DNA from: Leptonemataceae bacterium
GTDB taxonomy: Bacteria > Spirochaetota > Leptospiria > Leptospirales > Leptonemataceae
NCBI GenBank assembly: GCA_965227295.1
Contig: OZ245742.1
Location: 32,001 to 96,000, forward strand
Direction: 5' to 3'
DNA length: 64,000 nt
Both the position numbers and the translations under genes were made by a program. Below, in pieces: positions 1-46,879 of this stretch (the first letter of the stretch is position 1; each line of letters starts with the position of its first letter). Below the pieces are notes generated by a model. The model was not told the origin of the DNA, did no database searches, and saw only the letters and a list, made by a program, of their open reading frames with translations.

Positions 1-68
1 TCGAATTCGGCTCGCAGTTAAATCAGGAACTTGTCGACGGCGGATTGGCGGTGCGGTACGATCTATAA
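1..68 (+). CDS. 3' end of a gene, probably thermonuclease (SNase-like) family
   Basis: Frame reads EFGSQLNQELVDGGLAVRYDL* (TAA 66-68), resembling the SNase C-terminal LNxELVxxGLA motif; truncated by window edge. Confidence 0.4.
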   Translation, partial: EFGSQLNQELVDGGLAVRYDL

Positions 69-93
69 TGTACTCTCAGATGATGTTTGTCCT

Positions 94-244
94 CGTGATC
101 GTCTTCCGTGATCGTCTTCCGTGATCGTCTTCCGTGATCGTCTTCCGTGATCGTCTTCCGTGATCGTCTTCCGTGATCGTCTTCCGTGATCGTCTTCCGT
201 GATCGTCTTCCGTGATCGTCTTCCGTGATCGTCTTCCGTGATCG
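94..244. repeat. Perfect tandem repeat, 13-bp unit CGTGATCGTCTTC x11 plus 8 nt
   Basis: Units start at 94,107,...,237 with no spacers. Confidence 0.97.
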
Positions 245-345
245 CGGGTTAGTCTCTCTTTATCTCAAGCTTGTACCGTTTCCTGATTCGGCCGTCCGTG
301 GTTCTCTTGCCGCTGATGATGTTCTTTGTCTCTCTTTCGTTCTTG

Positions 346-2329
346 GTCGCGGTAGAACGGCCGGTTGCCCGGCCGCCCCCGCACAGATCCCGGCGTGCGG
401 TATTCTCGCACCGGGCTCTTCGAAAGCACTCGCTTCCACATAAAGTCAATTCAGAGTAAGTCGCAACTGAGATACTGGTCGTTCCATGATGCGCGGTTTT
501 TCGATCCGGTAGTGCGCCATCAGATCCCTCAGCCCCTGCCAGTCCAGACTCCGGCGCTGACTGCGCCGATTGAGCCACTTGTACAGATTCATTTCCACCT
601 GATAGTAGAAGCTTCGTATACTCTTGTAGTTGCATTGGACGCCATAATAGTTATAGTATCCACGCAGCCGGGAGTTCAGAAGATTGAAGAACCTGCGCAT
701 GGGTAGATGCCGATTCGCTTTAATCCACTGCTTCACATTCTGGATCGACGCATGCAATCGCTTTGGAGCGGTGCGACGCGGAACCCACCAGAACCCCTTT
801 CGAGAACGAGCCCAGCGGTATTCAAAGCCTAGAAATACGAACGCCTCACGCCCGGTATTGAACTTCGCGCGGAAGCCCGGGCGCTCGAAACTTTTCACTC
901 CTGACTTTTCCGGCGCCAGTTCCAGACCAAACTTTCGCAAACGTTTTCCAAGCGTCGCATAGAATTTCAGCGCATCGTCTTTGGATTCAAAGGCGCAAAC
1001 AAAATCGTCCGCGTATCGACACATATAGGCCGGTCTCTTGCAGTGCTTCTTCACCACTTTCTCGAACCAGAGGTCCAGTACGTAATGAAGATAGACGTTC
1101 GCCAGAACCGGACTGATCACGCCGCCTTGAGGAGTCCCAGCGGTCGGGCGCGAGACCTGACCGTTTACCTCCAGCACGCCTGCTTTCAGCCACTTGCGAA
1201 TCAGACCGAGAAAGGCCCGATCATCGATTCGTTGCTCCAGCATTCGCATCAACCAATCATGGTCAATGTTGTCGAAGAAACCCTTGATGTCGGCTTCCAC
1301 AATCCAGCCGAGCTTCCCCGGACTCAAAGTTGAACTCAGAGTCTTCGAAGCCTCACGCGGACCGGTGTTCGGCCGATAACCATACGAACACGACAGGAAG
1401 TCTTGCTCATAGATCGCTTCAAGGATACGCGTCGCGCATGTTTGTACCAGTTTGTCTTCGAGGGCCGGCAATCCAAGCGGACGTTGTTTTCCGTCCGCTT
1501 TCGGGATAAAGACCCTGCGAATCAGTTTTGTTCGGTATCGTTTCTGTTTTAAGCGTTCCACCAGATCCCCGACATTTTCCGTAAGGTTCGCTTCGTAGTC
1601 GCGAAACGTTTCACGGTCCACGCCCGGAGCCGCCCGGCGATTCATTCCTGCGAACGAATCTTCGAGATTCATCTGGTTGAGCATCCCATACAGATTACGA
1701 AACAGATGTTTCTTACTCCTCCTCGCTTTATTTGCTATTGCCCGTAGTGAGGTTTGCATCAGTTGTTCCGATCCTGCCGTCCGGCTGATGTTGACTCTGC
1801 GAGCTGCGTACTTTCGTCAGCCCCTTCCCCGATCATCGCGCATCGCACGCGAAGACCGAACCCGTCGAAACTCCATTCGAGTTTCATTCGATTCTGTGGA
1901 CGGCTCTCCCGCCCTCTGAGTACTATGGGCTGATCCGACTCCCCGTTGATCATCATTCTTCCTTGTTCATTCGGTCAGAATTACCTTCGCTATCGTCGAA
2001 GGAACCAACGGGGTCTCCCGGGTTCCACGATGTTTCTCTGCATACATGCCGCGCTCAAGCGACCCCGACAGACCTCCAGAATCTCGCTAAAACGATTCCT
2101 TTGTGCTGGTTTCCATCTGACCAATGATGTCACCGTCTGCATCTATGGCATTTTACGAGGCTCAACAGCTTCCGGGAGTGTGGACTCCCCTACGGCCTGC
2201 ATGCTTCCCTGTGTACGCTTCGTGTGGCGGTTACCCGCTTCCACGCAACACTCGGTAGAAGTTGTTCGCTAAACTTTACTTCATATGGACTTTCACCTTA
2301 TCAGAAACATCGGGCTTTGCCCGGCGCAC
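346..2329 (-). mobile_element. Group II intron 1 (IEP without endonuclease domain)
   Basis: 5' GTGCG at 2329; domain V/VI (GAGCCCGGTGCG...CACGCCGGGATC...CTACCGCGAC) ending AC at 346; EBS1 UGGUCA loop (2118-2123) pairs with 5' exon UGGCCA. Confidence 0.92.
446..1759 (-). CDS. ltrA: Group II intron reverse transcriptase/maturase (RT+X, no HNH)
   Basis: APGVD, RPLGLP, SYGYRP, GTPQGG, YADD motifs; maturase X domain GYYNYY. Confidence 0.95.
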   Translation of the reverse strand: MQTSLRAIANKARRSKKHLFRNLYGMLNQMNLEDSFAGMNRRAAPGVDRETFRDYEANLTENVGDLVERLKQKRYRTKLIRRVFIPKADGKQRPLGLPALEDKLVQTCATRILEAIYEQDFLSCSYGYRPNTGPREASKTLSSTLSPGKLGWIVEADIKGFFDNIDHDWLMRMLEQRIDDRAFLGLIRKWLKAGVLEVNGQVSRPTAGTPQGGVISPVLANVYLHYVLDLWFEKVVKKHCKRPAYMCRYADDFVCAFESKDDALKFYATLGKRLRKFGLELAPEKSGVKSFERPGFRAKFNTGREAFVFLGFEYRWARSRKGFWWVPRRTAPKRLHASIQNVKQWIKANRHLPMRRFFNLLNSRLRGYYNYYGVQCNYKSIRSFYYQVEMNLYKWLNRRSQRRSLDWQGLRDLMAHYRIEKPRIMERPVSQLRLTLN

Positions 2330-2458
2330 TGGCCACACGCCCCACGCATTTGTGGCCACAAATCTCCACCGAGCCTTTTTGTGAATTTCTGCTGGACAGC
2401 TTCACTGTACGGCATCGACCCTCGTTTCATGTCCGCAGCCGCTCGAAATTCCGCGCAT

Positions 2459-3712
2459 ATCTCCGGTCTCGAATCCACACATAGCCGCCAGCCCGCGCGC
2501 GGCGGGCGCCGGTCCGCCGCGCGCGGGCTGGCGGCGACTGCTCCGCAACAATCGCAGCGGGGCGGCGAAATCGCGCGCGTTCTCGGGAGCCCCGCCCGTG
2601 AGACTCACGGCCGCGCCCAAACAACGCCCCCCAGGCGAGCGCCCGCTGCGAAAACAAGATTCAATGCGCGATTTCCACAGCTGAATCTGTTCCATTATAC
2701 GGCGCTCGCGCAGGATGTACTCGCGCGCACCTATCCGAGGTTCTGTTCGCACTGCGAAACGGAAATGCGCACGCCCGTGGCCGGGCGCGAGACCGCGGTG
2801 CGTTGCGCAACCTGTCATCACATGGGCTCGCGCACGGCGGGCACACCCTTGGACCACTTAAAGTTACCTCTTTGGACGTTTAGCTACGTCCTCGGCGAGG
2901 CCGTACAGACGTTCCCGCAGATGATCTCCGCGGCGCAGATTCAAAGACGGCTCGGGTGTTCGAAACAGGCTTCGCTCAATCTCAAACGGCGGTTGCAGTT
3001 GTTCCTCACGGACCTCGTGCCCGCCGTTCGCGAACTGGTGAAGCGCGACCTTGAAGATGCGTTTTCGGACCTGAAATTGCCTGAGAATCAGGACGTTTCG
3101 AAGTTCGTCGCGAACAAGCCCGTAGTCCACAGTGACACCCTCGCCTTATTCTCGGCAACGCAACGTTCGAACGGCGGTCGTGCGAGATGGAAGCACACCG
3201 GACAAACTGCGAGCATTTATCTCTCGGATAAGGTCGCGGAGCAACGCGGCAAGGTTCAGATCGGAACGCTCGCACATACCGTTGCGATTAAGAACGGACC
3301 GGTGTTACTCACGTCCGTTCGCGATCAAACGCAGAAGAGTCTGGAGCCGGCTTTTAACTTCCTACCCCGCAACACTGCGATAATGACAGACGAAGGCACG
3401 CCGTGGCTTTCGCGTTACTTCCCGAATCATCGCGCCGTGAATCACTCAGCGCGTGCGAAAGACAAACAGCGCAGCAAGTGGGCGCGGGATCGCTGGAGTC
3501 GCAACGGCGTGCACAACCAGGTCGCCGAAGGCAACCAGCGCATCGTTAAGATGTCTTTCCTGGCAGCTTACGGATACTTCGACCCGAAGCATTCGCAGTT
3601 GTATCTCAACGAATACTCCGCACTCAAGGCACTGAAGATCCACGGCCTCGATAGCCTGCTTTCTTTATCAAATGCGGCCGATGTGCGGAATGTAGACCAC
3701 AGATTGTTCTAG
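2459..3712 (+). mobile_element. IS1595-family (ISXO2-like) element, unit 1, type A leader; transposase start codon unclear
   Basis: CxxC..CxxC zinc ribbon, HTH (ISAAQIQRRLG), DDE motifs HSDT/MTDEG/VNHS/HNQVAEG/LYLNEY; imperfect TIRs ATCTCCGGTCTCGAATCCACAC ... GTGCGGAATGTAGACCACAGAT. Confidence 0.85.
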
Positions 3713-4975
3713 ATCTCCGGTCTCGAATCCGCACAGGCCCGCGAGCGCGCGCACCGAGGTTCTGTAACCTCGGCGCGCGCGCTCGCGGGGCGGGCCGTGT
3801 CAGACTCGCAGCGGTGCGGCGAAATCGCGCGCGTTCTCGGCGGCCCCGCCCGTGAGACTCACGGCCGCGCCCAAAAAACGCCCCCCGCTGGCCGCAAAAG
3901 AAAGGGACCGGCCAAGGACCTCCGGTCCTCGCGATTCCCGCATGTTAACGTTCCGTACTTAACGGAATTTACGCAGGACGTCCTTGCGCGGGCGTATCCG
4001 AAATTCTGTCCGCACTGCGAAACGCAAATGCAAACGCCCGTGGCCGGGCGCGAGACGGCCGTACGCTGCGGCGAGTGTCATTTCATGGGCTCGCGCACGG
4101 CGGGCACGCCTCTTGACCATTTCAAGTTGCCGCTGTGGACCTTCGGCTATCTTCTCGGCGAATCGGTCCAGTTGTTCCCGCTCATGATCTCCGCCGCACA
4201 GATTCGCCGGCGGCTCGGTGTATCTAAGAGCACATCGCTGTTACTTAAGCGGCGCCTGCAATTGTTCCTCACGGATCTGCTTCCGGCCGTCCGCGAGATG
4301 ATGCGCCGCGATCTGGAAACTTCCTGGAATTGCGAGAAATTGCCTGAAAATGGCGACGTTTCAGAAGTCGTTGCGAACAAGCCCGTGGTGCATTCGGACA
4401 CGCTCGCGTTGTTCTCTGCCACGCAACGAAGCAACGGTGGCCGCGCTCGTTGGAAGCACACGGGGCAGACTGCGAGCATCTATCTTTCGGACAAGGTCGC
4501 GGAAGAGCGTGGCAAGCTTCAAATCGGAACGCTTGCGCACACTGTTGCGCTAAAGAACGGGCCGGTGTTGTTTACGTCCGTGCGTGATCAGACGCAGAAG
4601 AGTTTGCAACAATCGTTCGACTTCGTTCCGAAGAACTCAGTGATCATGACGGATGATGGCACACCGTGGTTGTCGCGCTACTTTCGGAATCACCGTGCAA
4701 TCAACCACAGTGCGCGAGCGAAAGACGGCAAGCGGTGTAAGTGGGCGCGTGATCGGTGGTGCAAGGACGGCGTGCACAACCAGGTCGCCGAAGGAAACCA
4801 GCGCATCCTTAAGATGTCTTTTCTGGCAGCTTATGGTTACTTCACGCCGGAGTACTCGCAGTTGTATCTCAACGAATACGCCGGACTGAAAGCGCTCAAG
4901 GTTCACGGTCTCGATGAACTCATTTCACCCGCGAATCGGCCAGTTGTGGGGATTGTAGACCCCAGATTGTTCTAG
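3713..4975 (+). mobile_element. IS1595-family element, unit 2, type B leader; transposase ORF 3797..4975 (GTG start)
   Basis: Same motifs as unit 1 with diverged protein; TIR pair; abuts unit 1 through TGTTCTAG. Confidence 0.85.
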
Positions 4976-6228
4976 ATCTCCGGTCTACAATCCACACATA
5001 GCCGCCAGCCCGCGCGCGGCGGGCGCCGGTCCGCCGCGCGCGGGCTGGCGGCGACTGCTCCGCAACAATCGCAGGGGGGCGGCGAAATCGCGCGCGTTCT
5101 CGGCAGCCCCGCCCGTGAGACTCACGGCCGCGCCCAAAAAACGCCCCCCCGCCAGGACCCCGCTGCGAAAACTAAATTCAATGCGCGATTTCCTCAGCTA
5201 AACTTAGGCTACTATACCGGGCTCGCGCAGGATGTTCTGGCGCGGACGTATCCGAAGTTCTGCCCGCATTGCGAAACCGAGATGCGCACGCCGGTGGCCG
5301 GGCGCGAGACCGCGGTACGCTGCGAAACCTGTCACTACATGGGCTCGCGCACGGCGGGAACGCCGCTGGATCACTTAAAGTTACCTCTGTGGACATTTGC
5401 GTATATCCTCGGCGAGGCCGTGCAAACATTTCCGCAGATGATCTCGGCCGCGCAGATTAAGCGGCGGCTCGGTTGCTCGAAACAGGCGTCGTTGAACCTC
5501 AAGCGGCGGTTGCAGTTGTTCCTCACGGACCTGCTGCCGGCCGTGCGGGAACTCGTGAAGCACGAACTCGAAGATGCGTTTTCGGAACTGAAATTGCCTG
5601 AAAATCAGGACATTTCGAAGATCGTCGCGAATAAGCCCGTGGTGCACAGCGATACGCTCGCGTTGTTCTCCGCGACGCAGCGCAGTAACGGCGGTCGTGC
5701 AAGATGGAAGCACACGGGACAAACCGCATCGATCTATCTTTCGGACAAAGTCGCGGAGCAGCGGGGCAAGGTTCAGATCGGAACGCTTGCGCATACCGTC
5801 GCGCTTAAGAACGGGCCGGTGTTACTTACGTCCGTTCGCGACCAAACACAGAAAAGTCTAAGCCGTCTTTTAACTTCATGCCGCGCTACACTGCGATTAT
5901 GACGGACGAAGGCACGCCGTGGCTCTCGCGCTACTTTCCGAACCACCGCGCGGTAAATCACAGCGCGCGGGCGAAAGACAAACAACGCAGCAAGTGGGCG
6001 CGGGATCGCTGGTGTAAGAACGGCGTGCACAATCAGGTCGCCGAAGGAAATCAGCGGATCGTTAAGATGAGTTTTCTCGCAGCTTACGGCTACTTTGACC
6101 CGAGGCACTCGCAGTTGTATCTCAACGAATACTCGACGCTCAAAGCACTGAAGATTCACGGCCTTGATTCTTTAGTTTCTTTAGCAAATGCGTCTGGTGT
6201 GCGGAATGTAGACCACAGATTGTACTAG
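4976..6228 (+). mobile_element. IS1595-family element, unit 3, type A leader; transposase frameshifted near 5860
   Basis: ORFs 5282..5902 and 5878..6228 are the two halves; AGTCTAAGCCG versus AGTCTGGAGCCG in unit 1 is a 1-nt deletion. Confidence 0.85.
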
Positions 6229-6290
6229 CAGGCTGCTGAAAAAGTCGAAATTTCCTGGCGATTTCGCGGTGCCTGTTCAAATTCTGTCGC

Positions 6291-7379
6291 ATGCGCGGCG
6301 AAGAGGAAAAGCAACCGAGTATCTGGAGTCACGTTTCGATGGAGGACCGGATTCCGGCAAACCATCCGTTGCGTGACATTCGCAAGCTGACGGATGCGGT
6401 CCTCGCGAAACTGAGCGATCGATTCGATGAAATGTATCCGGCCTTCGGTCGCCCATCGATTCCGCCAGAGTATTTGTTGCGCGCGCTTTTGCTGCAAGTG
6501 CTGTTCAGTGTACGCAGCGAACGTCAGTTGATGGAGCAAACGAACTACAATCTGCTCTATCGCTGGTTCATCGGGTTGAGCGCCGACGATCCCGTCTGGG
6601 ATGCGAGCGTCTTTTCAAAGAATCGTGATCGTCTGATGGAAGGCGGTATCGCCGACGAATTCTTTCGTGGCGTGCTGGAAGTGGCGGATGATCGCGGGCT
6701 GATCAGCGAAGAACATTTCACCGTGGATGCCACGTTGCTGGAGGCTGCGGCGAGCCTGAAGAGCTTCCAGAAAAAAGACGGTCGGCAATCCCCCTCGGAT
6801 GATGATCCGGGCAATCCGTTCGTGAGCTTTCACGGCGAAAAGCGCCGCAACGATACACATGAATCCACGACCGATCCAGATGCGAAGCTATTCCGCAAAG
6901 GCAACGGCAAAGAGGCCCGGCTGGTTTACATAGGGCATGTCCTTATGGAAAACCGTAACTGCCTCGCTGTGATGGCCGGCGTGACTCGCGCAACCGGAAC
7001 GGCGGAACGCGATGCGGCAGCCATCTTCATGAAGGAACTACGCCGAAGCAATCATCGGCCCCGCGTAACTCTGGGCGCCGACAAAGGCTACGATGCTAAA
7101 GCATTCGTAGAAGAACTTAAAGCGATCCGAATCGTGCCGCATATCGCGCAGAAGAGCCGGTCCAGTGCCGTCGATTATCGAACGGCCCGCAGCCCCGCCT
7201 ATGCCGTAAGTCAACGTCGACGCAAAGCCGTCGAAGAAATTTTCGGCTGGCTGAAGTCGGTCGGCCTGTGCAGGAAGATGCGCTTCCGCGGCCCGGATCG
7301 CGTTGGGTGGATCTTCCGCTTCGCTGTTGCCGTCTACAACTTGCTGCGAATCAGAAACCTGGAAGAGGGTACCGCATGA
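6291..7379 (+). CDS. IS5-family DDE transposase (DUF772 + DDE_Tnp_1)
   Basis: GRPSIPPE, RSERQL, VDATL, TDPDA, GADKGYD, VEEIFGWLK motifs. Confidence 0.93.
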   Translation: MRGEEEKQPSIWSHVSMEDRIPANHPLRDIRKLTDAVLAKLSDRFDEMYPAFGRPSIPPEYLLRALLLQVLFSVRSERQLMEQTNYNLLYRWFIGLSADDPVWDASVFSKNRDRLMEGGIADEFFRGVLEVADDRGLISEEHFTVDATLLEAAASLKSFQKKDGRQSPSDDDPGNPFVSFHGEKRRNDTHESTTDPDAKLFRKGNGKEARLVYIGHVLMENRNCLAVMAGVTRATGTAERDAAAIFMKELRRSNHRPRVTLGADKGYDAKAFVEELKAIRIVPHIAQKSRSSAVDYRTARSPAYAVSQRRRKAVEEIFGWLKSVGLCRKMRFRGPDRVGWIFRFAVAVYNLLRIRNLEEGTA

Positions 7380-7406
7380 TCGCAAATGCTAACTTGCGCA
7401 ATACAA

Positions 7407-7589
7407 GCGTTAGGGATGCGCAGGGGGCCGCGCAGCGGCAGTCCGGAGCGCGAAGCGCGGAGGACCGAAGCGAACGCAGAGCCCGGAGCAGCCCGGCGCC
7501 CGGCCGGCTTCAGAGGGGAAGGAGCGAACAGCGGCCCCGTCCAGCGGGGCCTTGTTGGCGCCGGCCGGGCGCAACGCCCAAATGAATTT
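7407..7589 (+). repeat. REP/MITE-like structured repeat, copy 1 (inside the IS5 element)
   Basis: GCGTTAGGGATGCG...CAGTCCGGAGCGCGAAGCGCG..GGACCG.AGCGAA...ACGCCCAAA.GAATT, shared with 10589-10726 and 63119-63240. Confidence 0.75.
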
Positions 7590-7631
7590 CACAGATTCCG
7601 CTTTCGAATGACTTTTTCAGCAGCCTGCTAG

Positions 7632-8062
7632 ATCTCCGGTCTCGAATCCGCACAGGCCCGCGAGCGCGCGCACCGAGGTTCTGTAACCTCGGCGCGCGCG
7701 CTCGCGGCAGGGGCCGTGTCAGACTCGCAGCGGGGCGGCGAAATCGCGCGCGTTCTCGGCGACCCCGCCCTTGAAAATCACGGCCGCGGCCCTCTTTCGC
7801 CCCCCTGCAACACACCCCCGGCCAAACTGCGATTCAATGCGCGATTTCCTCAGCTGAATTTGTTCTATTATAACGCGCTCGCGCAGGATGTTCTCGCGCG
7901 GGCGTATCCGAAGTTCTGTCCGCACTGTGAAACGGAGATGCGCACGCCGGTGGCCGGGCGCGAGACCGCGGTGCGGTGTGGTGAGTGTCACTTCATGGCG
8001 TCGCGCACGGCGGGCACGCCGCTGGATCACTTAAAGTTACCTCTGTGGACGTTTGCGTATGT
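7632..8062 (+). pseudogene. IS1595-family element, unit 4, type B leader, truncated after the zinc ribbon
   Basis: Leader nearly identical to unit 2; ORF from 7716 matches units 1-3 up to LWTFAYV, then similarity stops. Confidence 0.85.
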
Positions 8063-8065
8063 TGT

Positions 8066-10410
8066 GTCGAGTAGGGTCAGCCCGTCACCGGGCCAACCCC
8101 CTCTAAGAACCGTACGTGCGAGTTTCCCCGCATACGGCTCAAGCAGTTCCCGCCTTACGATTCGCATGAATCTGCTGATGGCAGAAGAGATGTACAAGTT
8201 GAAGATTCAGGATGTGGCGTTCACCACCCTGCGAGAGCGGAACCTTGTGATGGATGTGCAGCTTTTCGCCGTTCTCCAGATCCGCGGCACAGAGCGGGCA
8301 AAGACCTTTCTGAATCATTGCGAGGGTACGATGATAGGGACGATCCATTTCCTTCACGGCCTTCAGGCGACGTTTTTCCCAGTATGATCTCAAATCGGGA
8401 TCATCGGGCGAAGCGTCACCACGCACCATAATGTGCGGTCGTTTTTTCACCCACGAGAGTTTTCTCAGTAAACGGAGTTTCCCTCGCGATGGATCAACGG
8501 TCGCGAACACCCAATGGTCAGAGCGTTCCGGATGGTGTCTTCCCCAATAGCGGGCTTTGGTCCAGCGTTTTCCCTTGTTGGAGTGTCGTCGGCGAGCCCA
8601 ACGCCAGAGGCGATGCCAGCAGAAGTGATCGACGCGTGCGAACACCTTGCTTGACGCACAGTGACGATAGTAATTTGCCCAGCCAATGAGCACGGGATTC
8701 AAAGCGTCGATCAGGGCGAGTTGGGGCGCGCCCTGGTATTGCCTGACAAGATCGCGAACGCGATCTCGCAGGCGACGCTCGTTGTCCCGGGAGGGACGAA
8801 TGAGAAGTTTCCGACCTTCGCGTGGATTGCGAAACATGGGATTCTTCGTCATTCGTTTCGTTCCCGATGCTTCCACCTGTTGGAGATGGAAACCCAGGAA
8901 TTCGAAACCGTCGCTGGCGTGAACAATCCGGGTTTTAGATTCCGATAATCGCAACCCGCGCCTGGAAAGCCAGTTCCCGAGCAACGGCAGTAACGCTTCC
9001 GCTTCGCTACGTGATCGGCAGAAGACCAGAAAGTCATCGGCGTAACGCACGAAGCGGTTGTTCGGAACGAACTCCTGCATACCATCGAGGGCGATATTGG
9101 CGAGCAAAGGAGAGATAACTCCCCCCTGAGGAGTACCGGATTCAGAATCCGAGAACACTTCGTTCTCAACCACTCCCGCCTTGAGCCATTGTTTGATCAG
9201 CTCGTATGCGGGGAATCGGTGAAGTTTGCGAAGCAGGAATTCATGGGAGATGCGGTCAAAGGCGCTTTCAATGTCGGCGTCAATGACCCACGGTGTGCGC
9301 GATGCTCCGCAGACCTGACGGAAGATCGTTTCGATAGCATCGTGAGCACTCCGGCCCGGACGAAATCCGTAGGATCGAGACTCGAATCGAGCTTCCCATT
9401 GAGGTTCCAACGCGTTTTTGACCATGGCCTGCATGGCCCGGTCCTGAATCGTTGGAATTCCCAGGGGTCTTTGTTTGCCGTTCGCTTTCGGGATGTAGAT
9501 TCTTCGTACCGGGGACGCCTTCCAGGGCTCGTGCAGAGCCAGGAAGTCAACCAGCTTTCCCCTCGCGGCCGGTGTCTTCAGGACGAGACCATCGACACCC
9601 GGCGTGAACTTGCCACGATTCTTCTGCGTCACCTGCCGCACGGCAAGCAGCCGATTGGAAAAGCTCCGCAGCATCAGTTTCTGCAGGGAGCGTACTTTGC
9701 GCACGTTGCCCTGTCTTTCGGCTCTGAATATTCGTTGCCGCAGACGACGTACTTCTTTCATGGCCCTCTGCCAGTCGACAGAGTTCCAGTCCGTAGCGGA
9801 CGCGTAATTCTCATCGCACGATGGTACGATGCCAGTCTCCGCATTTTCCTGAGTCGTCATTGCAAGTGTATTCAGTGAACTACCCTGTCGAAGTGGGCAC
9901 CCTTTCGAGTTGATCAAAAGATCTATTCGGCCGGTTATGATTTCCCGTTGCCTTTCGGCTGCCGACGTTCGCTTATTCGACAATCCCATACCCGCTGAGG
10001 AGTCCGGCCTTGTTTACACTCAGCTTGCCGGACATCGGTCCGGACCCCAACGGGCTTACCACGTTCCGCAGGTTGAAGATACGACGGGACAGGCACCCAA
10101 TATACCCCGGCGGCTGAGGTGGCTGCACCCGTGTGGTAGTATCACGGGTTCTCCTGTGCCGCGTTTCCTGGCATTCACCTCTGATCCAGGCGGTTTTTTA
10201 CGAAGGCTTACTCGGGTTCACTTACGTTTGCCATACCGTCTTTTCCGGTTGCCGGATCCAATGGAGGTTCATCGCGTCCGTTGCAACATCCCGGCAGCTT
10301 CGCACAGTCCGTTACCGTTCTGCGCGTGCCGGGCGGAAATGGAGCCAGCCACAGGCTCATCAGGTCAGTGTTCCACCTCCTGAACTTCTTCCAGCGACTT
10401 CGTGTCGCAC
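8066..10410 (-). mobile_element. Group II intron 2 (IIB, chloroplast-like class, with HNH endonuclease)
   Basis: 5' GTGCGACACGAAGTCGCTGGAAGAAG at 10410; DV GAGCCGTATGCGGGGAAACTCGCACGTACGGTTC; ends CTACTCGAC at 8066; EBS1 10135-10140 and EBS2 ~10191-10198 match the 5' exon. Confidence 0.93.
8139..9860 (-). CDS. ltrA: Group II intron RT/maturase/HNH endonuclease
   Basis: N-terminal W..VDW..VRRLRQRIFRA, TPGVDG, GTPQGG, YADD, GWANYY, C-terminal CPLC..HH..NLQLVHLFCH; start at MTTQEN (alternative 9989). Confidence 0.95.
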   Translation of the reverse strand: MTTQENAETGIVPSCDENYASATDWNSVDWQRAMKEVRRLRQRIFRAERQGNVRKVRSLQKLMLRSFSNRLLAVRQVTQKNRGKFTPGVDGLVLKTPAARGKLVDFLALHEPWKASPVRRIYIPKANGKQRPLGIPTIQDRAMQAMVKNALEPQWEARFESRSYGFRPGRSAHDAIETIFRQVCGASRTPWVIDADIESAFDRISHEFLLRKLHRFPAYELIKQWLKAGVVENEVFSDSESGTPQGGVISPLLANIALDGMQEFVPNNRFVRYADDFLVFCRSRSEAEALLPLLGNWLSRRGLRLSESKTRIVHASDGFEFLGFHLQQVEASGTKRMTKNPMFRNPREGRKLLIRPSRDNERRLRDRVRDLVRQYQGAPQLALIDALNPVLIGWANYYRHCASSKVFARVDHFCWHRLWRWARRRHSNKGKRWTKARYWGRHHPERSDHWVFATVDPSRGKLRLLRKLSWVKKRPHIMVRGDASPDDPDLRSYWEKRRLKAVKEMDRPYHRTLAMIQKGLCPLCAADLENGEKLHIHHKVPLSQGGERHILNLQLVHLFCHQQIHANRKAGTA

Positions 10411-10588
10411 ACTCCCGAAAAACCGATCTCATGCAACCTCCCGCCATTCAAAACGATGATGCAGCCCTCGCACACGCGGAATGGCAACGACTTTCGCGGA
10501 GGGCGACGGCCGGGAACGTGTCGCAGGTCATAATTACGAGTCCCTCAATATCCTCTCCGGGTATCAACAGTAACTTCCCGAACAACCA

Positions 10589-10726
10589 GCGTTAGTGATG
10601 CGAAGGGTGGCGCGCAGCGCCAGTCCGGAGCGCGAAGCGCGTAGGACCGCAGCGAAGCGGAGCCCGCAGCAGCACGACGGCCCGCCGCCTCCACGGCGCG
10701 GCGGGCCGGAACGCCCAAAAGAATTC
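10589..10726 (+). repeat. REP/MITE-like structured repeat, copy 2
   Basis: High similarity to 7407-7589; terminal hairpin GGCCCGCCGC..GCGGCGGGCC. Confidence 0.75.
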
Positions 10727-10764
10727 CCAACTCCTGAGAGAATTCCTTAGGTTTACCCACGGGA

Positions 10765-11200
10765 GTGTTAGGAACGATGCTCGCGGCGATTGAGCAACAT
10801 GACGCGCATAAGCGGGATGCGAACTACAAGCTCGGTCGCGATTTGGTGAACAACTTCGGCACACCGTTCGGCGTGTTCGCCGATTACATTCCCGGCGTGG
10901 ATCGTTTTACCGATCTGATGGGCGATAAGGTCGGTCGCCTGTTCGCGCGCAATCCGATGATTCCGCAGTTGCTGATGCCGGTGGCGTATGGTTCGTATCA
11001 CGGCGGCACACGTGGGGCGGTGATGTCCGGTGTCGGGCTCGCGGCGACGGTGGCGAGTCGTTTTTTCAGCGCGGGCACAGTCGGCGTGAACGCCGGCTAT
11101 TCGTTTCAGGATGGTTACAGCGGCGGCGTGACGGTCGGCTTCGGTGAAGGTGATGTGAACTCAGACGTGGGCCTGAATTACAGTGAGGTCGAGGCGGGAC
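10765..11200 (+). pseudogene. Fragment resembling an internal Gly-rich segment of a large secreted/polymorphic-toxin-like spirochaete protein
   Basis: GVNAGYSFQDGYSGGVTVGFG...VGLNYSE; composition changes abruptly afterwards; family assignment from memory only. Confidence 0.3.
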
Positions 11201-11277
11201 CTGATGTCGGGGGCAGCTCACCGCCAGTACACAAAAAAAACAACTTCCACAGAACAGGTCACATCTCCCAATGGGAC

Positions 11278-11793
11278 ATGCACATCGTCCGCTCCATCTT
11301 GACATCCGGATGCCTGACCTTACTCTCCGCAGTCGCTCTTCTCACATCCTGCATATACCTGACCCAAAGCTACAACGCAAGCGGACTGGAAGAGGACATG
11401 GAGCGACTGCTTGTACACACGGCCGGGTTGTCACCGCGCGACTTTGACTGCAAAATGATCGGAGCGTCGCGCGCGGGACTGTGCTTATTTCCATTGAACA
11501 GCACTGAGTTCGATGATCTCGCAAACCGCTTTGCACTGATCGCTCCGCCGGCTATCGAAAATCGCTACTTTGAAACCTGGGTGAACGCCGGTCACCCGGA
11601 ACCCGGCACAACGCGCGCCACGACGGAGCGCGGCTGCCGCTATCAATCCGGATTCGAGAACGCGCGGGTCGTGTTTACGCCCGAACCGAGAAAAGGCCCC
11701 ATCCGCGAACACATCCACTTCGAGTACTTCCTGCTCTTCCGAAACGCGACCACCGGCCAGGCCTGCGCACAAACATCTTACTCCTACGGATGA
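11278..11793 (+). CDS. Hypothetical exported/lipoprotein
   Basis: ATG at 11278, signal peptide with LLTSC lipobox; C-terminal part of ORF 10765..11793. Confidence 0.55.
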   Translation: MHIVRSILTSGCLTLLSAVALLTSCIYLTQSYNASGLEEDMERLLVHTAGLSPRDFDCKMIGASRAGLCLFPLNSTEFDDLANRFALIAPPAIENRYFETWVNAGHPEPGTTRATTERGCRYQSGFENARVVFTPEPRKGPIREHIHFEYFLLFRNATTGQACAQTSYSYG

Positions 11794-11869
11794 GCCGGCG
11801 ACCAACAACGCAACGGCGCCTGCGGAGGATTGACGATTTCCGCCAGACTCATTACGTTACTGCATCACC

Positions 11870-12709
11870 ATGACCACGCCCCTCAAAGACACCACCACGC
11901 TCATCACCGGCATCACGGACGCCGGCTCCCTGGCCATGACCATCGCGAAGCAGGTCCTCGCCGAGGGCGGCAACATCATCTGCTCCGGCCTGGGACGCAC
12001 CGCGCATCATAGCGGGCTTTCCGACCGCGCCGCGGACTTTCTCGATACAACCTACGCCGCGTTCGAAGAAACGGTGCGGCAGGAACTCGGCGCCGACGTT
12101 CCGGCGTTCGCCCTGGACGTAACGCTGGACGGGAGCATCGAGGACTTCTGCAAAGCATTGCAGCAACGAAACATCACGCTCAACGGTTTGCTGCACAGCA
12201 TCGCCATGGATAAGACCATCAAAGCCGGCGTCGTCATCAAGTCCATCCTCGACGTAACGAAAGAAGAATTCTTCGGCGCCATGGACGTGTCCGCGTATTC
12301 CTTAGTTTCACTTACGCGAGGATTAGTGCACTCAAACATTTTGCAGAAGAATTCTTCGATCCTGGCGTTGAGTTACCTCGGCGCGGAAAAGGTCGCCTAT
12401 CATCCTTACAAAAACATCGGCGTGGCGAAGGCGGCGCTGGAACGCATCGTCGTGGAGCTGGCCCATGAACTCGGAATATCGCATCACATCAAAGTGAACG
12501 CCATTCGCTTTTCCCCGTACACGGGCAGCAAGGCGGGCAGCGCCATCCAGGGTCTCGCCGAGGCCGTAGAGTTTTGCGATCGCAACAGTCCGCTCGGAAA
12601 CGCGTTACCGGAGGACCTCGCCTACGAAGCCGCATATCTGTTGCGGCCCTACGGCCGCGTCACCGGAGAGATTCGCAACGTCGACGGCGGCTATCATATT
12701 CGCGGCTGA
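11870..12709 (+). CDS. fabI: Enoyl-ACP reductase (SDR)
   Basis: LITGI..SLA..IA, LLHSIA, SAYSL, YKNIGVAK (Yx6K), VDGG. Confidence 0.85.
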   Translation: MTTPLKDTTTLITGITDAGSLAMTIAKQVLAEGGNIICSGLGRTAHHSGLSDRAADFLDTTYAAFEETVRQELGADVPAFALDVTLDGSIEDFCKALQQRNITLNGLLHSIAMDKTIKAGVVIKSILDVTKEEFFGAMDVSAYSLVSLTRGLVHSNILQKNSSILALSYLGAEKVAYHPYKNIGVAKAALERIVVELAHELGISHHIKVNAIRFSPYTGSKAGSAIQGLAEAVEFCDRNSPLGNALPEDLAYEAAYLLRPYGRVTGEIRNVDGGYHIRG

Positions 12710-19610: not shown

Positions 19611-20081
19611 TTACGCGGCCAGGTGGCTGCGCAGCATCCACGCGGTCTTCTCATGGACCTGGAGGCGCTGGACCAGGAGGTCCACGCTGGACTCGTCGCC
19701 GGACGCCTCCGCTTTCGGGAGCGCGGTACGGATCGTGCGCACCACGGCCTCGTGCCCCTCCACGAGTTTCTCGATCATCTCGGTCGCCGGCGGCACGCCG
19801 TCGTCCTCTCGAATGGTCGAAAGCTTCGCGTACTCACTGTACGTGGCCGGGGCAAATTCTCCCAGCGCCCGAATCCGCTCGGCGACTTCATCCGTGGCCT
19901 GCCAGAGTTCCGTGTACTGCTCCTGAAACAGGGCGTGCAGCGTCGAAAAAAACGGGCCGGTCACATTCCAGTGATAGCCGTGCGTCTTCAGATAGAGCAC
20001 GTAGGTATCCGCCAGGACCTTGCCGAGTTCCCCGGCTACTTCCAGGCGAGCGTCTTCTTTGATTCCAATATTTACTTTCAT
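19611..20081 (-). CDS. dps: Dps DNA-protection ferritin-like protein
   Basis: LYLKTHGYHWNVTGPFFSTLH, DEVAERIRALG, HEKTAWML; start trimmed to MKVNIG. Confidence 0.95.
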   Translation of the reverse strand: MKVNIGIKEDARLEVAGELGKVLADTYVLYLKTHGYHWNVTGPFFSTLHALFQEQYTELWQATDEVAERIRALGEFAPATYSEYAKLSTIREDDGVPPATEMIEKLVEGHEAVVRTIRTALPKAEASGDESSVDLLVQRLQVHEKTAWMLRSHLAA

Positions 20082-20279
20082 GATTGTACCCCTTCCGGCC
20101 GGGGCCGGTTTGTTAGATCGCCAGAGGCATACGAGAATCCCTCTAAATCTAGACGCAGTATAAAAAATAAACTGCCGGGAGGCCAGTCTTTTTTCGCGGC
20201 GCGGCATTCCCACCGAGGGCATTTTTTCGCTGGCGACCCCGCCAGGGATGCAGTAACCTTTCGGTAGTCGAGGGGCGCG

Positions 20280-20744
20280 TTGAATACATATCGAGACTAC
20301 AGCAAACAGGATCTCGCCAACTATCTGCGCAGTCATGGCCTGAGTGTAACGGCCAGCCGCGTGGAACTCGCCTATCGTATCTTACAGAACTACCATCACC
20401 TGACGTCCGAAGAGATAGCCAATCTCATCGCCGACGAGGACCTGCACGTCTCGCGGGCCACGGTCTACAACGCGCTCAACCTGTTCGTGGAGATCGGCCT
20501 GTTGTCCCGCATACGCACGGGGCGCAACTCCTTCATGTACGACGTGAACGTCGGCGATCACCATCACGCCGTGGACACCGAATCCGGCGAAATGATCGAC
20601 TTCGCCTTCGATGCGCGCACCGAGAAGCGCATTCGCGATCTGGTCTGCAAGGAACTCGGCGACGAACTCGGCTTCGAGATCGACGAACTCAGCCTGGTGG
20701 CCTACGGCCGCCGGGCCGGCAACTCCGCAAACCCGCCTGGTTGA
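20280..20744 (+). CDS. Fur-family regulator (PerR/Irr-like), divergent from dps
   Basis: GLSVTASR, HHLTSEE, SRATVYNALN, HHH motif. Confidence 0.88.
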   Translation: MNTYRDYSKQDLANYLRSHGLSVTASRVELAYRILQNYHHLTSEEIANLIADEDLHVSRATVYNALNLFVEIGLLSRIRTGRNSFMYDVNVGDHHHAVDTESGEMIDFAFDARTEKRIRDLVCKELGDELGFEIDELSLVAYGRRAGNSANPPG

Positions 20745-24741: not shown

Positions 24742-25542
24742 TCAGGAATTGAGTCGGATCACCGCGCCCGCGTCCAACAACCGAAACGTAAACGATTCGG
24801 TGATGAACAAACGCACGGCCTCGGACGTATGCGATTCGTAGCCGATGCTGAAGTCCTGGCCCAGGCAAATCTGCAGATCCCCGCCGCGCGTGGAAATGAG
24901 ATAGGCCTCGTTTTGAATGGTCGGTGAGTAGATGACCGGACCGTCGATGAGCCGCTCCACGTGTTTGCGCAGCGGATAGCCGTTCGCGTGGGCCGCCAGG
25001 GTTCGCCAGGGTTTGGCACCGGCAATCAGAACATACGGGCCGGTTACGAGTTCGTCCTGAAAGCGCATGATGGCCGTGGAGATGGCTTCGAGCATTTCTT
25101 GATCGCTGGCGCCGAAGTTCACCGCGTCGTGGGCCCCCGCTTCGGCAATGCCCAGGACGCCGGCGTCTTTGTAGCCCTGAAAGATGATCCGGTCCTCGTA
25201 GTCCGCGGCCTTGCGTGCCGCCTCGGTGACCGGATCCAGGTTTACGTCGTCCGCGCCCCGCTCGATGTTGTCGAGTTCCCAGGTGTTCAACTCGAACGAT
25301 ACTCGAAACTCAATCAACGGCAGTACACGATAGATGCCGTGGCGCACCCCGTCTTCCCACTGCGTTCCGGGTACATCCAGACGGCCGGAACTTACGGCGG
25401 TGTACTGCCAGCCGTGCGGACCGTCGATGTCGGCAAAACGCCGGGCGGTCAGCCGGCTGCTCAGGGCCTGAGTGGCCTCATCATCAATGGCCCGCCACGC
25501 CGCGTCGGGGATGGGTGCTGCTTCGCGTTTTAATATGTCCAT
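24742..25542 (-). CDS. Family 1 encapsulin shell protein (linocin M18-like)
   Basis: MDILKREAAPI..W..ID.EA, ARRFADIDGP.G, GQDFSIGY, ESFTF. Confidence 0.95.
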   Translation of the reverse strand: MDILKREAAPIPDAAWRAIDDEATQALSSRLTARRFADIDGPHGWQYTAVSSGRLDVPGTQWEDGVRHGIYRVLPLIEFRVSFELNTWELDNIERGADDVNLDPVTEAARKAADYEDRIIFQGYKDAGVLGIAEAGAHDAVNFGASDQEMLEAISTAIMRFQDELVTGPYVLIAGAKPWRTLAAHANGYPLRKHVERLIDGPVIYSPTIQNEAYLISTRGGDLQICLGQDFSIGYESHTSEAVRLFITESFTFRLLDAGAVIRLNS

Positions 25543-25560
25543 AGTAATCTTGCTCCTTGA

Positions 25561-25929
25561 CTATTCGCTCGCCGGGCGTCCTTTGAGGCTGCCGATATCC
25601 AGCCCGCCGCCCTTCTCGGACGAACCATGACCGCCGGTGGCGCCTTCTTCCACTTCCGTGATGGGACCTTCGGTAAACAGATACGTGCGCAGTTCTTCGT
25701 CCCACTTCGGCATATTGCGGCGCAGCCATTCCAGAGACATACAGGCGTGTTCGATCTCTTCGTCGCGGTTGTGCGCGAGGATTTTTTTCAAATCGGGATC
25801 CGTGGTGAGATGCACGCGCTGGTGGTACCAGTCCACGGCTTCAATTTCTTCAATGAGACTCTTCATCGCACGATGAAAGTCCCGTACTTCGGCGCTGAGT
25901 TCTTCGGCCGGTTCGTGATAATCGGACAT
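25561..25929 (-). CDS. Encapsulin-associated ferritin-like protein with C-terminal targeting peptide
   Basis: EEIEAVDWY.QR, HNRDEEIEHA, EWLRR; cargo peptide GGLDIGSLKG. Confidence 0.93.
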   Translation of the reverse strand: MSDYHEPAEELSAEVRDFHRAMKSLIEEIEAVDWYHQRVHLTTDPDLKKILAHNRDEEIEHACMSLEWLRRNMPKWDEELRTYLFTEGPITEVEEGATGGHGSSEKGGGLDIGSLKGRPASE

Positions 25930-45570: not shown

Positions 45571-46869
45571 TTAAGGCAACAACTTCTGGGCGCTCACGAG
45601 TTTTACGCACACGGCAACGACCTCCATGGCCGCCGTGATCTCCTCGACGGACGGCAGCGACGGAGCAATGCGAATGTTCCGATCTTCGGGATCCTTGCCG
45701 TACGGAAAGGTCGCCCCGGCCTTCGTGAGCTTGACGCCCGCCTCTCCGGCCAGGCGCACGACTTCGCTCGCACATCCAGGCATGGTATCGAGACTGATGA
45801 AATAACCACCCTCCGGTCGGGTCCACTCGGCGATATCGGCACCGGAGAGCTGCGTTTCGAAAATGTTCAACACTGTATCGAACTTCGGCTTCAGGATCAG
45901 AGCGTGTTTGTCCATGTGCGCCCGAAGCCCGTTCATATCGCCGAAGAAACGGATATGGCGCAGTTGATTGACTTTGTCCGGACCGATGGTCTGAATCGCG
46001 AGATGTTGTTTCGCGTCGGCGATGTTCGCTTCACTCGCGGCGAGGAAGGCGAGTCCGGCGCCGGCAAACGAAATCTTCGAAGTGGAGCCGATCATCCATA
46101 CGCGCTCGCCGTTGCCGGCATCCTTGCATGCATCGAGTAAGTTCTTGAGCGGTGCCGGCCCGTCGCCGAGATGGTGTTCCGCGTACGCGTTGTCCCAGAC
46201 GATGCGAAAGTCCGGCGCGGCGGTCTTCATGGATGCGAAGCGATCGACCGCCGCGTCCGAGTACACAATGCCCGTGGGATTGCTGTACTTCGGCACGCAC
46301 CAGATGCCCTTGATGTCCGCGTCCGCGCCGGCCAGGCGCTCCACCTCGTTCATGTCGGGGCCGTCGTCGTTTAACGGGACGGGAATCATTTCAATGCCGA
46401 AGTGCGCGCAGACCGCGAAGTGCCGGTCGTAACCGGGCACGGGACAGAGGAACTTCGGCTTGCCCTGAATCCACGGCTTCGACGTGCTCAAGTTTCCGTT
46501 CGCGTCACGCACCGGCACTCCGTGAGTGAGCGCACGCACCACGCAATCGTGCATGATCGTAAGACTCGCGTTCCCGCCGATGATGATCTCATCCGGCGAC
46601 ACGCCCATGTACTCCGCGAACAACGCCTTCGCCTCGGGGATGCCGTCCACCCCACCGTAGTTCCGCGCGTCCGTGCCGTTCGCGGTTTTATAATCGTCCG
46701 GTCCGGGCAACGTGAGCATGTCGTTGGCCAGATCGAGCTGTTCCGGCGACGGTTTGCCCCGGGTCATGTCCAGAGCGAGGCCCCGGGCCTTCATGGCGTC
46801 GTAACGCTGCTGCAATTCCGCCTGCAGTTGCTCCAGGTCGTTTTTTGTTAATGTCTTCCAGTCGTTCAT
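45571..46869 (-). CDS. Class I/II PLP-dependent aminotransferase
   Basis: LDMTRGKP, PGYDRHF, YSNPTG, WDNAY, STSKI. Confidence 0.92.
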   Translation of the reverse strand: MNDWKTLTKNDLEQLQAELQQRYDAMKARGLALDMTRGKPSPEQLDLANDMLTLPGPDDYKTANGTDARNYGGVDGIPEAKALFAEYMGVSPDEIIIGGNASLTIMHDCVVRALTHGVPVRDANGNLSTSKPWIQGKPKFLCPVPGYDRHFAVCAHFGIEMIPVPLNDDGPDMNEVERLAGADADIKGIWCVPKYSNPTGIVYSDAAVDRFASMKTAAPDFRIVWDNAYAEHHLGDGPAPLKNLLDACKDAGNGERVWMIGSTSKISFAGAGLAFLAASEANIADAKQHLAIQTIGPDKVNQLRHIRFFGDMNGLRAHMDKHALILKPKFDTVLNIFETQLSGADIAEWTRPEGGYFISLDTMPGCASEVVRLAGEAGVKLTKAGATFPYGKDPEDRNIRIAPSLPSVEEITAAMEVVAVCVKLVSAQKLLP

Positions 46870-46879
46870 TAAGGGTTCC

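Follow-up and report, generated by a model that had tools for sequence, protein, structure and literature searches.

The window analyzed here is a 64,000-nucleotide (nt) stretch of the genome of a Leptonemataceae bacterium of the order Leptospirales (G000; GenBank assembly GCA_965227295.1, contig OZ245742.1), which is assembled as a single 5.94-Mb contig (C1) and of which the window is positions 32001-96000. At window positions 2459-8062, four units resembling insertion sequences (IS) of the IS1595 family were read head to tail from the sequence, three of them full (1245-1255 bp) and one truncated. This array was probably built by repeated insertion of a site-specific IS1595-like element at the end of a host gene, with the formation of cointegrate-like islands. 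The same order of parts was found in G000, in a sister species of the same genus (G001) and in Leptospira, namely host-gene stop-T-(L-K-S)-T-(L-K-S)-T-S-T-S. In this notation, T is the 8-bp target-site duplication at unit junctions, L is a unit in which the frame continues past the right end and adds a conserved extension of some 200 amino acids, S is a short bare unit located after K, K is the cargo between L and S, and U is a conserved module at the right end of the cargo. The parts of the array that lie in the window are the following.

2459-3704, + strand: unit 1 (B1), an S copy with an intact frame and a Pfam PF12762 match of 39 bits
3705-3712, + strand: T = TGTTCTAG, which provides the stop codon for the short frame of unit 1
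3713-4967, + strand: unit 2 (B2), a solo S copy with an intact 392-amino-acid frame at 3797-4975
3713-3960, + strand: leader of unit 2, with the left inverted repeat, a type-B hairpin at 3738-3789 and a conserved block
2459-2656, 4976-5173 and 7632-7829, + strand: leaders equivalent to that of unit 2
4968-4975, + strand: T = TGTTCTAG, the spacer between units 2 and 3
4976-6220, + strand: unit 3 (B3), a solo S copy, frameshifted
6221-6228, + strand: T' = TGTACTAG, a T carrying one substitution, after unit 3
7632-8062, + strand: unit 4 (B4), of which the 5' 431 nt are left, truncated by the 3' end of a group II intron

An earlier note on this DNA had described four head-to-tail units joined by 8-bp junctions, and reading of the window confirmed the units, their coordinates and the junctions. 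The element measures about 1.25 kb, and its inverted ends are approximately 25 bp in length; full units start with ATCTCCGGTCT and finish with GTAGACC(A/C)CAGAT. The facing ends can be illustrated by the arms at 4945-4967 and 4976-4998, which are 23 nt long, 87% complementary and separated by 8 nt. These ends, along with the PF12762 matches, agree with the note's identification of IS1595-like elements with terminal inverted repeats. The frame of unit 3 is split into 5282-5902 and 5878-6228 by a 1-nt deletion near 5860. Units 1 and 3 are 86% identical, and unit 2 is 74-75% identical to either of them; it is the most diverged unit of the genome, with 74-76% identity to the other G000 units apart from those of array C, described below. 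The ratio of nonsynonymous to synonymous substitution rates (dN/dS), a check that had been proposed along with the observation that units 1 and 3 differ by mostly synonymous changes and that unit 2 is more distant, was 0.085 for units 1 and 3, 0.152 for units 1 and 2 and 0.164 for units 2 and 3, with dS of 0.71-1.20; the divergence is as had been described. Over all of the units compared, dN/dS was 0.07-0.24, and dS between stacked lineages was 0.5-1.2. The units of the window are thus 14-26% apart and not the result of a recent tandem duplication, as had also been argued; from their sequences they appear to be old lineages rather than local duplicates.

The hairpins of the leaders follow the A-B-A-B order that had been noticed, with type A in units 1 and 3 (22-nt arms, 100% complementary) and type B in units 2 and 4 (23-24-nt arms, 96% complementary). 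The first approximately 150 nt of the leaders are 90-100% alike where the unit bodies are only 41-88% alike, which would point to strong constraint on the leader or to its exchange between units. No Rfam family was recognized in the leaders, as all six matches in the scan of window 1-12000 (E up to 0.1) were to group II intron families. With regard to a possible role of the hairpins as terminators, no T-run was found 3' of the leader hairpins, and perfect hairpins are absent in G001.

The 8-bp spacer was traced to a host gene. The whole array begins about 82 kb upstream of the window units, where an MBOAT gene (85 bits for Pfam MBOAT) has its stop codon; the frame of this gene ends in FIYFVF*. 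The last 8 bases of this gene are TGTTCTAG (G000 5896415-5896422), and the left end of a unit follows directly at 5896423. Because T equals the last 8 bases of the MBOAT gene, the spacer is the host's own sequence, repeated at each junction. The sequence TGTTCTAG occurs eight times on both strands of the 5.94-Mb genome, and its presence at the junctions is not a matter of chance, since five of the eight occurrences immediately precede the left end of a unit. As T consists of the final 8 bases of the gene including its stop codon, the host gene stays whole after insertion, and the site is reusable because gene and target stay intact. DNA and protein searches found ten full units in G000, besides the truncated unit 4 and two 217-nt leader fragments. 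All but two of these copies lie in one region that runs across the contig ends, from 5,896,423 to 40,062. A second MBOAT gene of G000 (95 bits) carries array C, which has two more diverged units and in which T is AGTTTTAG, both at the gene end and between the units.

A search of the genome and its relatives for solo copies, empty sites and further arrays, which the earlier note had suggested, found all three. Twelve MBOAT loci were surveyed in the family to which the window belongs. Five of these are occupied (G000, G001, G002, G006 and G012, with the occupancy of G006 and G012 judged partly by eye) and seven are unoccupied; in G006 a transposase match adjoins the MBOAT gene within one contig. 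A contig from wastewater, sequenced in another study, likewise reads FIYFVF*, TGTTTTAG and then the left end of a unit. For Leptospira, 22 genomes were searched with the 3' end of the host gene, which gave 13 good loci. Seven of them are occupied at the same position, here at the end of a SpoIIE-type phosphatase gene, and T mirrors each host, being TTGTAGTT, TTGTAGAT, ATGTAGAA, TTGTAGAG, TTGTAGAA or CTTTAGAA. Four further loci are empty and have a single T, next to which lies the DNA found past the last T in G030 and G027, and the other two are unclear. In G030 and G027, the same T is present on both outer sides of the whole insert. Duplication and insertion are proven in Leptospira by these empty sites and matching outer T sequences, and the 8-bp spacer is an ordinary target-site duplication whose position is fixed relative to the host gene. 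The earlier note had observed that the left flank of unit 1, which ends in CCGCGCAT, does not match the spacer, and had concluded that repeated target duplication could not fully explain the array. The mismatch was confirmed. The conclusion drawn from it was not, as the flank is a conserved cargo end, the spacer is the last 8 bases of the MBOAT gene, and Leptospira provides the outer T on both sides as well as single-T empty sites. The idea that the array was built by repeated targeted insertion is supported.

Unit 1 and the long copy A2 (G000 10008-11253), between which lie 23 kb of cargo, are 100% identical over 1246 bp. Unit 1 is the right-hand copy, B1, of an island composed of A2, K_A and B1, and units 2-4 are solo copies. 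Within such islands, U abuts the left end of the next unit without a T, and CCGCGCAT, the seemingly odd flank to the left of unit 1, is where U ends, since this end was seen at four other places in G000. All three pairs of L and S in G000 are identical over 1246 bp (D1=E1, E2=A1 and A2=B1). The array of G001 extends over 100 kb and reads MBOAT(FIYFVF*)-TGTTTTAG-(L0-K0-S1)-T-(L1-K1-S2)-T-(L2-K2-S3)-T-(L3-K3-S4)-T-S5-T-S6-T-S7-T-L4-K4, with seven junctions of the form right end-T-left end; L and S are 100% identical in four of four pairs, and different pairs are 77-83% alike. In G030 the order is host-TTGTAGTT-(L-K-S)-TTGTAGTT-(L-K-S)-TTGTAGTT-host. Neither of its two pairs has a mismatch in 1218 bp, and the pairs are 85% identical to each other. 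G027 contains one island, with TTGTAGAT on both sides. Overall, L and S match exactly in nine of 10 pairs, identity between different pairs is 77-86%, and the identity of L and S ends exactly at the element ends. The size of K is 23-27 kb in G000, 15-27 kb when G001 is counted as well, and approximately 30-41 kb in Leptospira. Of the 41 genomes searched, G000 included, 28 contain relatives of the long protein, and up to 12 units are stacked at one site. Units and cargo cores have diverged to a similar degree; their divergence covaries with r = 0.73, over 11 non-independent pairs, which is too weak to use.

The product of the units was compared with known families. The ISXO2-like/IS1595 DDE domain (PF12762) was found in three of five unit pieces, at 39, 35 and 28 bits (cut-off 27), and the two pieces that lacked it are N-terminal parts without the DDE region; the long form gave 31.5 bits. 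In an alignment of 16 family members, D286, E332 and K339 are invariant and D201 is present in at least 90%, and unit 2 keeps all four of these catalytic residues, which appear to be those of an active-type enzyme. Two CxxC pairs, C91 and C94 among them, are nearly invariant in the same alignment. The CxxC..CxxC arrangement was seen in the translations, a double zinc ribbon match for unit 4 was below threshold, and the Pfam IS1595 zinc-ribbon family was not reported in the scan of the unit pieces. A match to PHROG 1076 ('FmdB-like') had an E value of 2.3e-74. Because the NCBIfam IS1595 model was not reached, the element would appear to be a distant branch that belongs to the IS1595 family or lies next to it.

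The last unit before a long non-unit stretch has no T. Its CAGAT end is followed by ATAGCG and the frame continues for about 200 codons, giving a protein of 594 amino acids; the frame of a solo copy ends inside T, without the extension. Fifteen sequences of the extension from both bacterial families could be aligned and share 22 invariant residues, and judged by this alignment the extension appears to be a real conserved domain. An AlphaFold2 model of the extension had a mean predicted local distance difference test (pLDDT) score of 67.5, with a helix-helix-strand-strand part whose block means are mostly 85-92. No PDB structure matched the model at E <= 0.001 in a Foldseek search. The weaker hits of this search (E >= 0.013) were mostly winged-helix regulators or DNA binders and serve as a lead only, such that a winged-helix-like fold may be considered for the predicted structure. 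Two conserved small genes lie 3' of the long transposase, ahead of the variable cargo. The first (G000 5898281-5898607, 109 amino acids) is 52-58% identical between the GC-rich genus of the window and Leptospira. Its nearest protein-atlas cluster is 'HNH endonuclease domain protein' (0.96, 196 of 256 features), 17% of which carries Pfam HNH, and the gene may encode an HNH-like nuclease partner of the transposase. The second small gene is 24-35% identical between the two families and had no protein-atlas match. No NCBIfam match was obtained for the long protein or for either small gene, and no Pfam family was recognized in the conserved genes after the transposase.

These structures can be accommodated by a single scheme. 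The moving unit would be a circle of one IS and K, in which the left end of the element would adjoin U and its right end the extension, an arrangement that would encode the full-length enzyme. Fusion of the circle with the chromosome, by replicative or IS-dimer-type transposition, would yield T-IS-K-IS-T with duplication of the IS, as for IS26 and IS21. Recombination between the two identical copies would then delete K and leave a solo T-IS-T, a route that could account for units 2-4 of the window and for S5-S7 of G001. New arrivals most likely use the T proximal to the host gene, with older copies pushed distally. Insertion at the host-proximal site is the simplest account of the stacking because only one recognition mode is needed, and the damaged copies of G000 are the distal ones, which fits arrival next to the host gene. 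We infer that units 2-4 are older solo copies that are now decaying.

A broader proposal is put forward tentatively, as somewhat short of an even chance: Leptospirales, including pathogenic Leptospira, may carry an undescribed class of integrative islands with an IS1595-like enzyme, in which a circle enters at a stop codon and duplicates the IS, the full enzyme is made only when joined to cargo, the truncated solo form is perhaps a regulator, and islands pile up by successive arrival. If so, the array would be a dated record of invasions and the main entry point for defense, toxin and metal-resistance cargo in Leptospirales, with one chromosomal site per lineage at which defense systems, polymorphic-toxin genes and metal-efflux operons enter. 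The order of parts given above accounts for about 82 kb of G000 and for comparable regions in Leptospira and the sister species, and it also explains why draft assemblies break at these genes. An IS1595-type DDE enzyme that, as a single protein, combines Tn7-like site choice with IS26-like islands would be of interest as a transposon mechanism and possibly for targeted insertion tools. Searches of open-access papers on IS1595 or ISXO2 in Leptospira and on IS1595 cointegrates found no description of the arrangement; one Leptospira paper mentions an IS1595 transposase in a predicted island.

Several observations weigh against repeated site-specific insertion of a circular IS and cargo. The right outer T is hidden in G000, where unit 4 is cut, and closure was shown only in Leptospira. 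At the right end of the G001 array, no further unit, T or U end was found within the next 40 kb. All three genomes of the window's genus are occupied, hence there is no empty site at close range, and within G000 the element is absent from five further MBOAT-like gene ends and from three further TGTTCTAG sites. The L and S of G027 are only 91.8% identical. Leaders appear to have been exchanged between units, and gene conversion could also keep L equal to S. The D and E islands of G000 are near-duplicates, and the break between them coincides with the contig ends. Inverted copies of U and the first 217 nt of a unit are present inside K and cross the left end of the element, which the scheme does not explain. 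NCBIfam IS1595 model NF033547 scored unit 2 at only 20.8 bits (cut-off 75) and did not match the long form. Among the assembled contigs of the runs, no circular molecule of K and IS was seen. With respect to the near-duplicates, G000 5896415-5909425 and 5925542-5938550 are 100% identical over 13,011 bp, 5915634-5924063 and 1-8430 are 99.7% identical over 8.4 kb, and the two islands differ by 6.2 kb exactly at the contig ends. They may be a true tandem copy or a circularization artifact of a single island; the window units, being 14-26% apart, are unaffected.

Other routes to such an array were considered in light of the same evidence. The whole of L-K-S might move as a composite transposon, or a K-plus-IS circle might integrate into a solo unit by Campbell-type recombination, with L and S kept equal by gene conversion. 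The outer arrangement of T-(IS-K-IS)-T is expected from a composite transposon as well, the leaders do show exchange of sequence between units, and the 91.8% identity of the G027 pair is what old independent copies would have. Nevertheless this appears unlikely, since nine of 10 pairs have no mismatch over 1218-1246 bp and neighboring pairs differ by 14-23%, and the identity of L and S goes up to the element ends and no further. Conversion that kept the pairs free of all differences should also homogenize neighbors, which lie 8 bp apart and are 77-86% identical. Somewhat less likely still is that the transposase recognizes a resident end, or the junction of right end, T and left end, such that arrays grow at any junction, one of the two readings that the earlier note had offered. 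There are precedents in IS30, which targets its own ends, and in IS26, units of which insert next to another IS26. Every internal T lies between two element ends, the solo copies S5-S7 of G001 lie between islands and not at the distal end, and in the more distant arrays of G024 (four units) and G021 (two units) the start may not be tied to a host gene. Yet the first copy is at a host stop codon, with a host-derived T, in each of three lineages (at two MBOAT genes and at the phosphatase gene of Leptospira), and solitary first insertions exist, for example in G030 at 740848. The host gene end and its T are sufficient to explain all junctions, with the site surviving every insertion, and the damaged copies of G000 are distal.

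That the units are a local paralog family, formed by in-situ tandem duplication of a domesticated transposase and diverging under selection for a host function, is very improbable. The low dN/dS of 0.07-0.24, the conserved leaders and the occurrence of arrays in many genomes of the order would suit such a history. However, low dN/dS would also be expected of copies that each derive from an active lineage evolving on its own, and the copies have inverted ends and 8-bp host duplications, are present or absent at the same site, with empty sites, and occur as exact copies on either side of variable cargo; there is a frameshift in one copy and a truncation in another. The suggestion of the earlier note that this is a domesticated array is therefore not sustained, given the presence or absence of elements between species, the decayed copies (frameshift, truncation and foreign insertions) and active-type D-D-E-K residues. 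Hardly any weight was given to an assembly artifact in which dispersed copies were collapsed or chained. It is true that the contig ends inside the island region, that two islands are near-duplicates, and that among the 24 of 286 pieces listed from the three runs (X2 and X3 included) none covers a unit-T-unit junction with 31 nt on each side and none spans the stretch. But the window units differ by 14-26% and are not confusable, and the same order of parts occurs in G001 and in near-complete Leptospira genomes of at most three contigs. Depth is about 400 for unit 1 versus about 190 for units 2 and 3, a ratio of approximately 2:1 that fits two copies of the unit 1 sequence, and one 950-nt contig in each of X2 and X3 joins unit 3 to the neighboring IS5-like element. 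The array is real, and is neither domesticated nor an artifact. Repeated insertion of the element at the host gene end, with cointegrate-like islands, is the preferred reading in what follows.

The IS1595 family was reportedly defined by Siguier, Gagnevin and Chandler in 2009. The element described here resembles this family in its ISXO2-like/IS1595 DDE domain that follows cysteine pairs, its ends of about 25 bp and its 8-bp duplication, and cargo is known in some members. As described in PMC5704250, members with passenger genes (MTnSag1 and tISCpe8) have 25-bp inverted repeats, 8-bp repeats and a circular form. Unlike the family, the element occupies one fixed position at a host gene end and is stacked in tandem, and its cargo is outside the inverted ends, between identical copies, with a frame that runs into a conserved extension. 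The islands are closer in form to IS6-family cointegrates, in which, according to PMC7986276, two directly repeated IS copies are present and resolution leaves one copy flanked by the duplication; for IS26, the same paper gives a circle of one IS and adjacent DNA as the moving unit, with 8-bp repeats. The order duplication-IS-cargo-IS-duplication is shared with these cointegrates, with identical direct copies in nine of 10 pairs and an outer T on both sides in G030 and G027 and on the left only in G000. In contrast to IS6 and IS26, only PF12762 and no IS6-type domain was found in the Pfam scans, and the resemblance would be that of a mechanistic analog and not of a member. IS26 has no fixed chromosomal site, whereas the present element has one, and IS26 arrays share one IS between neighboring cargos, whereas the islands here keep both copies and their own T.

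Site choice is reminiscent of Tn7. According to PMC11014353, Tn7 insertion occurs a set distance away from the 3' end of a conserved gene, which remains unbroken, and its cargo is rich in defense and resistance genes; it uses TnsA, TnsB and TnsC with a target selector, and target immunity blocks a second insertion. A fixed position at the 3' end of a conserved gene (five of 12 MBOAT loci and seven of 13 Leptospira loci) and large cargo islands are common to both. The conserved core here differs from that of Tn7 in consisting of a single DDE protein, with a tail that may be winged-helix-like, and two small genes. Also unlike Tn7, no target immunity is apparent, because up to 12 units stack at one site. 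The abutted right and left ends recall the (IS)2 dimers of IS21 and IS30, in which abutted ends a few bases apart promote replicon fusion with one IS copy on each side. Those dimers contain identical copies with 2-3-bp spacers and are unstable intermediates. The neighbors seen here differ from them in being 74-86% identical, with the 8-bp target duplication as spacer. Abutted-end circles of the IS21 and IS30 families are mentioned in PMC7986276. By analogy, the element would thus combine an IS26-type island structure and a Tn7-type site choice with an IS1595-like enzyme, as a member of neither group. An integron-like cassette array or domesticated gene array was rejected as a comparison, as each unit has its own transposase frame and inverted ends, and copy number and presence vary between species.

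Four other features of the window adjoin or interrupt the array.

1-2458, + strand: right end of cargo K_A including U, with 13-bp repeats at 94-244 followed by 245-345 and 2346-2458; it abuts unit 1
346-2345, - strand: group II intron 1, inside U, with a reverse transcriptase/maturase open reading frame at 446-1759
6229-7627, + strand: IS5-like element inside the CTAG of T', with CTAG duplicated at 6225-6228 and 7628-7631
8063 to about 10475, - strand: group II intron 2, with a reverse transcriptase/maturase/HNH open reading frame at 8139-9989; its 5' end was read by eye

The repeats of U comprise 11.6 perfect copies of the 13-bp sequence CGTGATCGTCTTC at window 94-244 (Tandem Repeats Finder), with similar arrays at four other places in G000, and in sequence they look like iterons. 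At four other places in G000 U precedes the first unit, and there 94-345 is joined straight to 2330/2345-2469. Intron 1 was recognized by Rfam RF02005 at 2052-2293 (130.7 bits) and RF00029 at 346-420 and by Pfam RVT_1 and GIIM; three further copies in G000, 98-100% identical, set its ends at about 345/2346. The IS5-like element has perfect inverted ends of 18-22 nt and Pfam DUF772 and DDE_Tnp_1 domains, and it is multicopy, because contigs of the runs place it in other contexts. Intron 2 matched RF00029 at 8066-8142 (65.5 bits) and Pfam RVT_1, RVT_N, GIIM and HNH. The DNA past intron 2 is unrelated and is not the remainder of unit 4. The position of this intron against the truncated unit 4, with unrelated DNA at its 5' flank, points to either a deletion or recombination between copies of the intron. 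Some 130 nt of GC-rich sequence, similar by eye, are present twice, at approximately 7386-7560 in the 3' part of the IS5-like element and at approximately 10590-10720 beyond intron 2. The gene at window 11870-12709 is on another contig in G001 and is uninformative about the original downstream flank of the array.

The content of the cargo was surveyed with Pfam scans of 128 frames in seven G000 and G001 segments and of 39 Leptospira frames. Genes of defense type included an OLD-type ATPase with a UvrD helicase, a 2102-amino-acid NACHT protein, a CHAT-TPR protein and SIR2. Other cargo comprised a 2184-amino-acid PT-HINT protein, metal-efflux and MerR genes, and regulators. No conjugation, replication-initiator or phage-structural family was recognized in these scans. 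In the GC-rich genus, genes of the DprA-like, DUF6908 and staphylococcal-nuclease-like types are found repeatedly near U; they were not seen in the Leptospira stretches scanned. The inverted copies of U and unit sequence mentioned above are at G000 19672-20458 and 5913542-5914330 (both - strand) and match window 146-345 and 2345-2675 at 99-100%. Together with the nuclease and DUF6908 genes, an inverted copy makes up inverted repeats of approximately 2 kb, which enclose a 7.7-kb segment encoding the 2184-amino-acid PT-HINT protein. Inverted unit fragments are also contained in K0, K2 and K3 of G001. The segment between such repeats may be invertible, or may be a relic of intramolecular transposition.

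Searches with the Leptospira long protein returned one plasmid record (short form) and one phage record, with no free replicon carrying the element. The record KF114878.1 (47.4 kb), filed as a Leptospira phage, has truncated transposase copies at 1-915 and 46398-47417 and no annotated structural genes; from its sequence it looks like one such island, on a contig broken or cut at the repeated element. Beyond intron 2, window 10745-11189 is 82% identical over 449 aligned positions to G000 25453-25891, within the PT-HINT gene of the upstream cargo. A 342-amino-acid frame at window 10765-11793 had no Pfam family. The stretch at 10745-11189 may be an orphan toxin-tip module.

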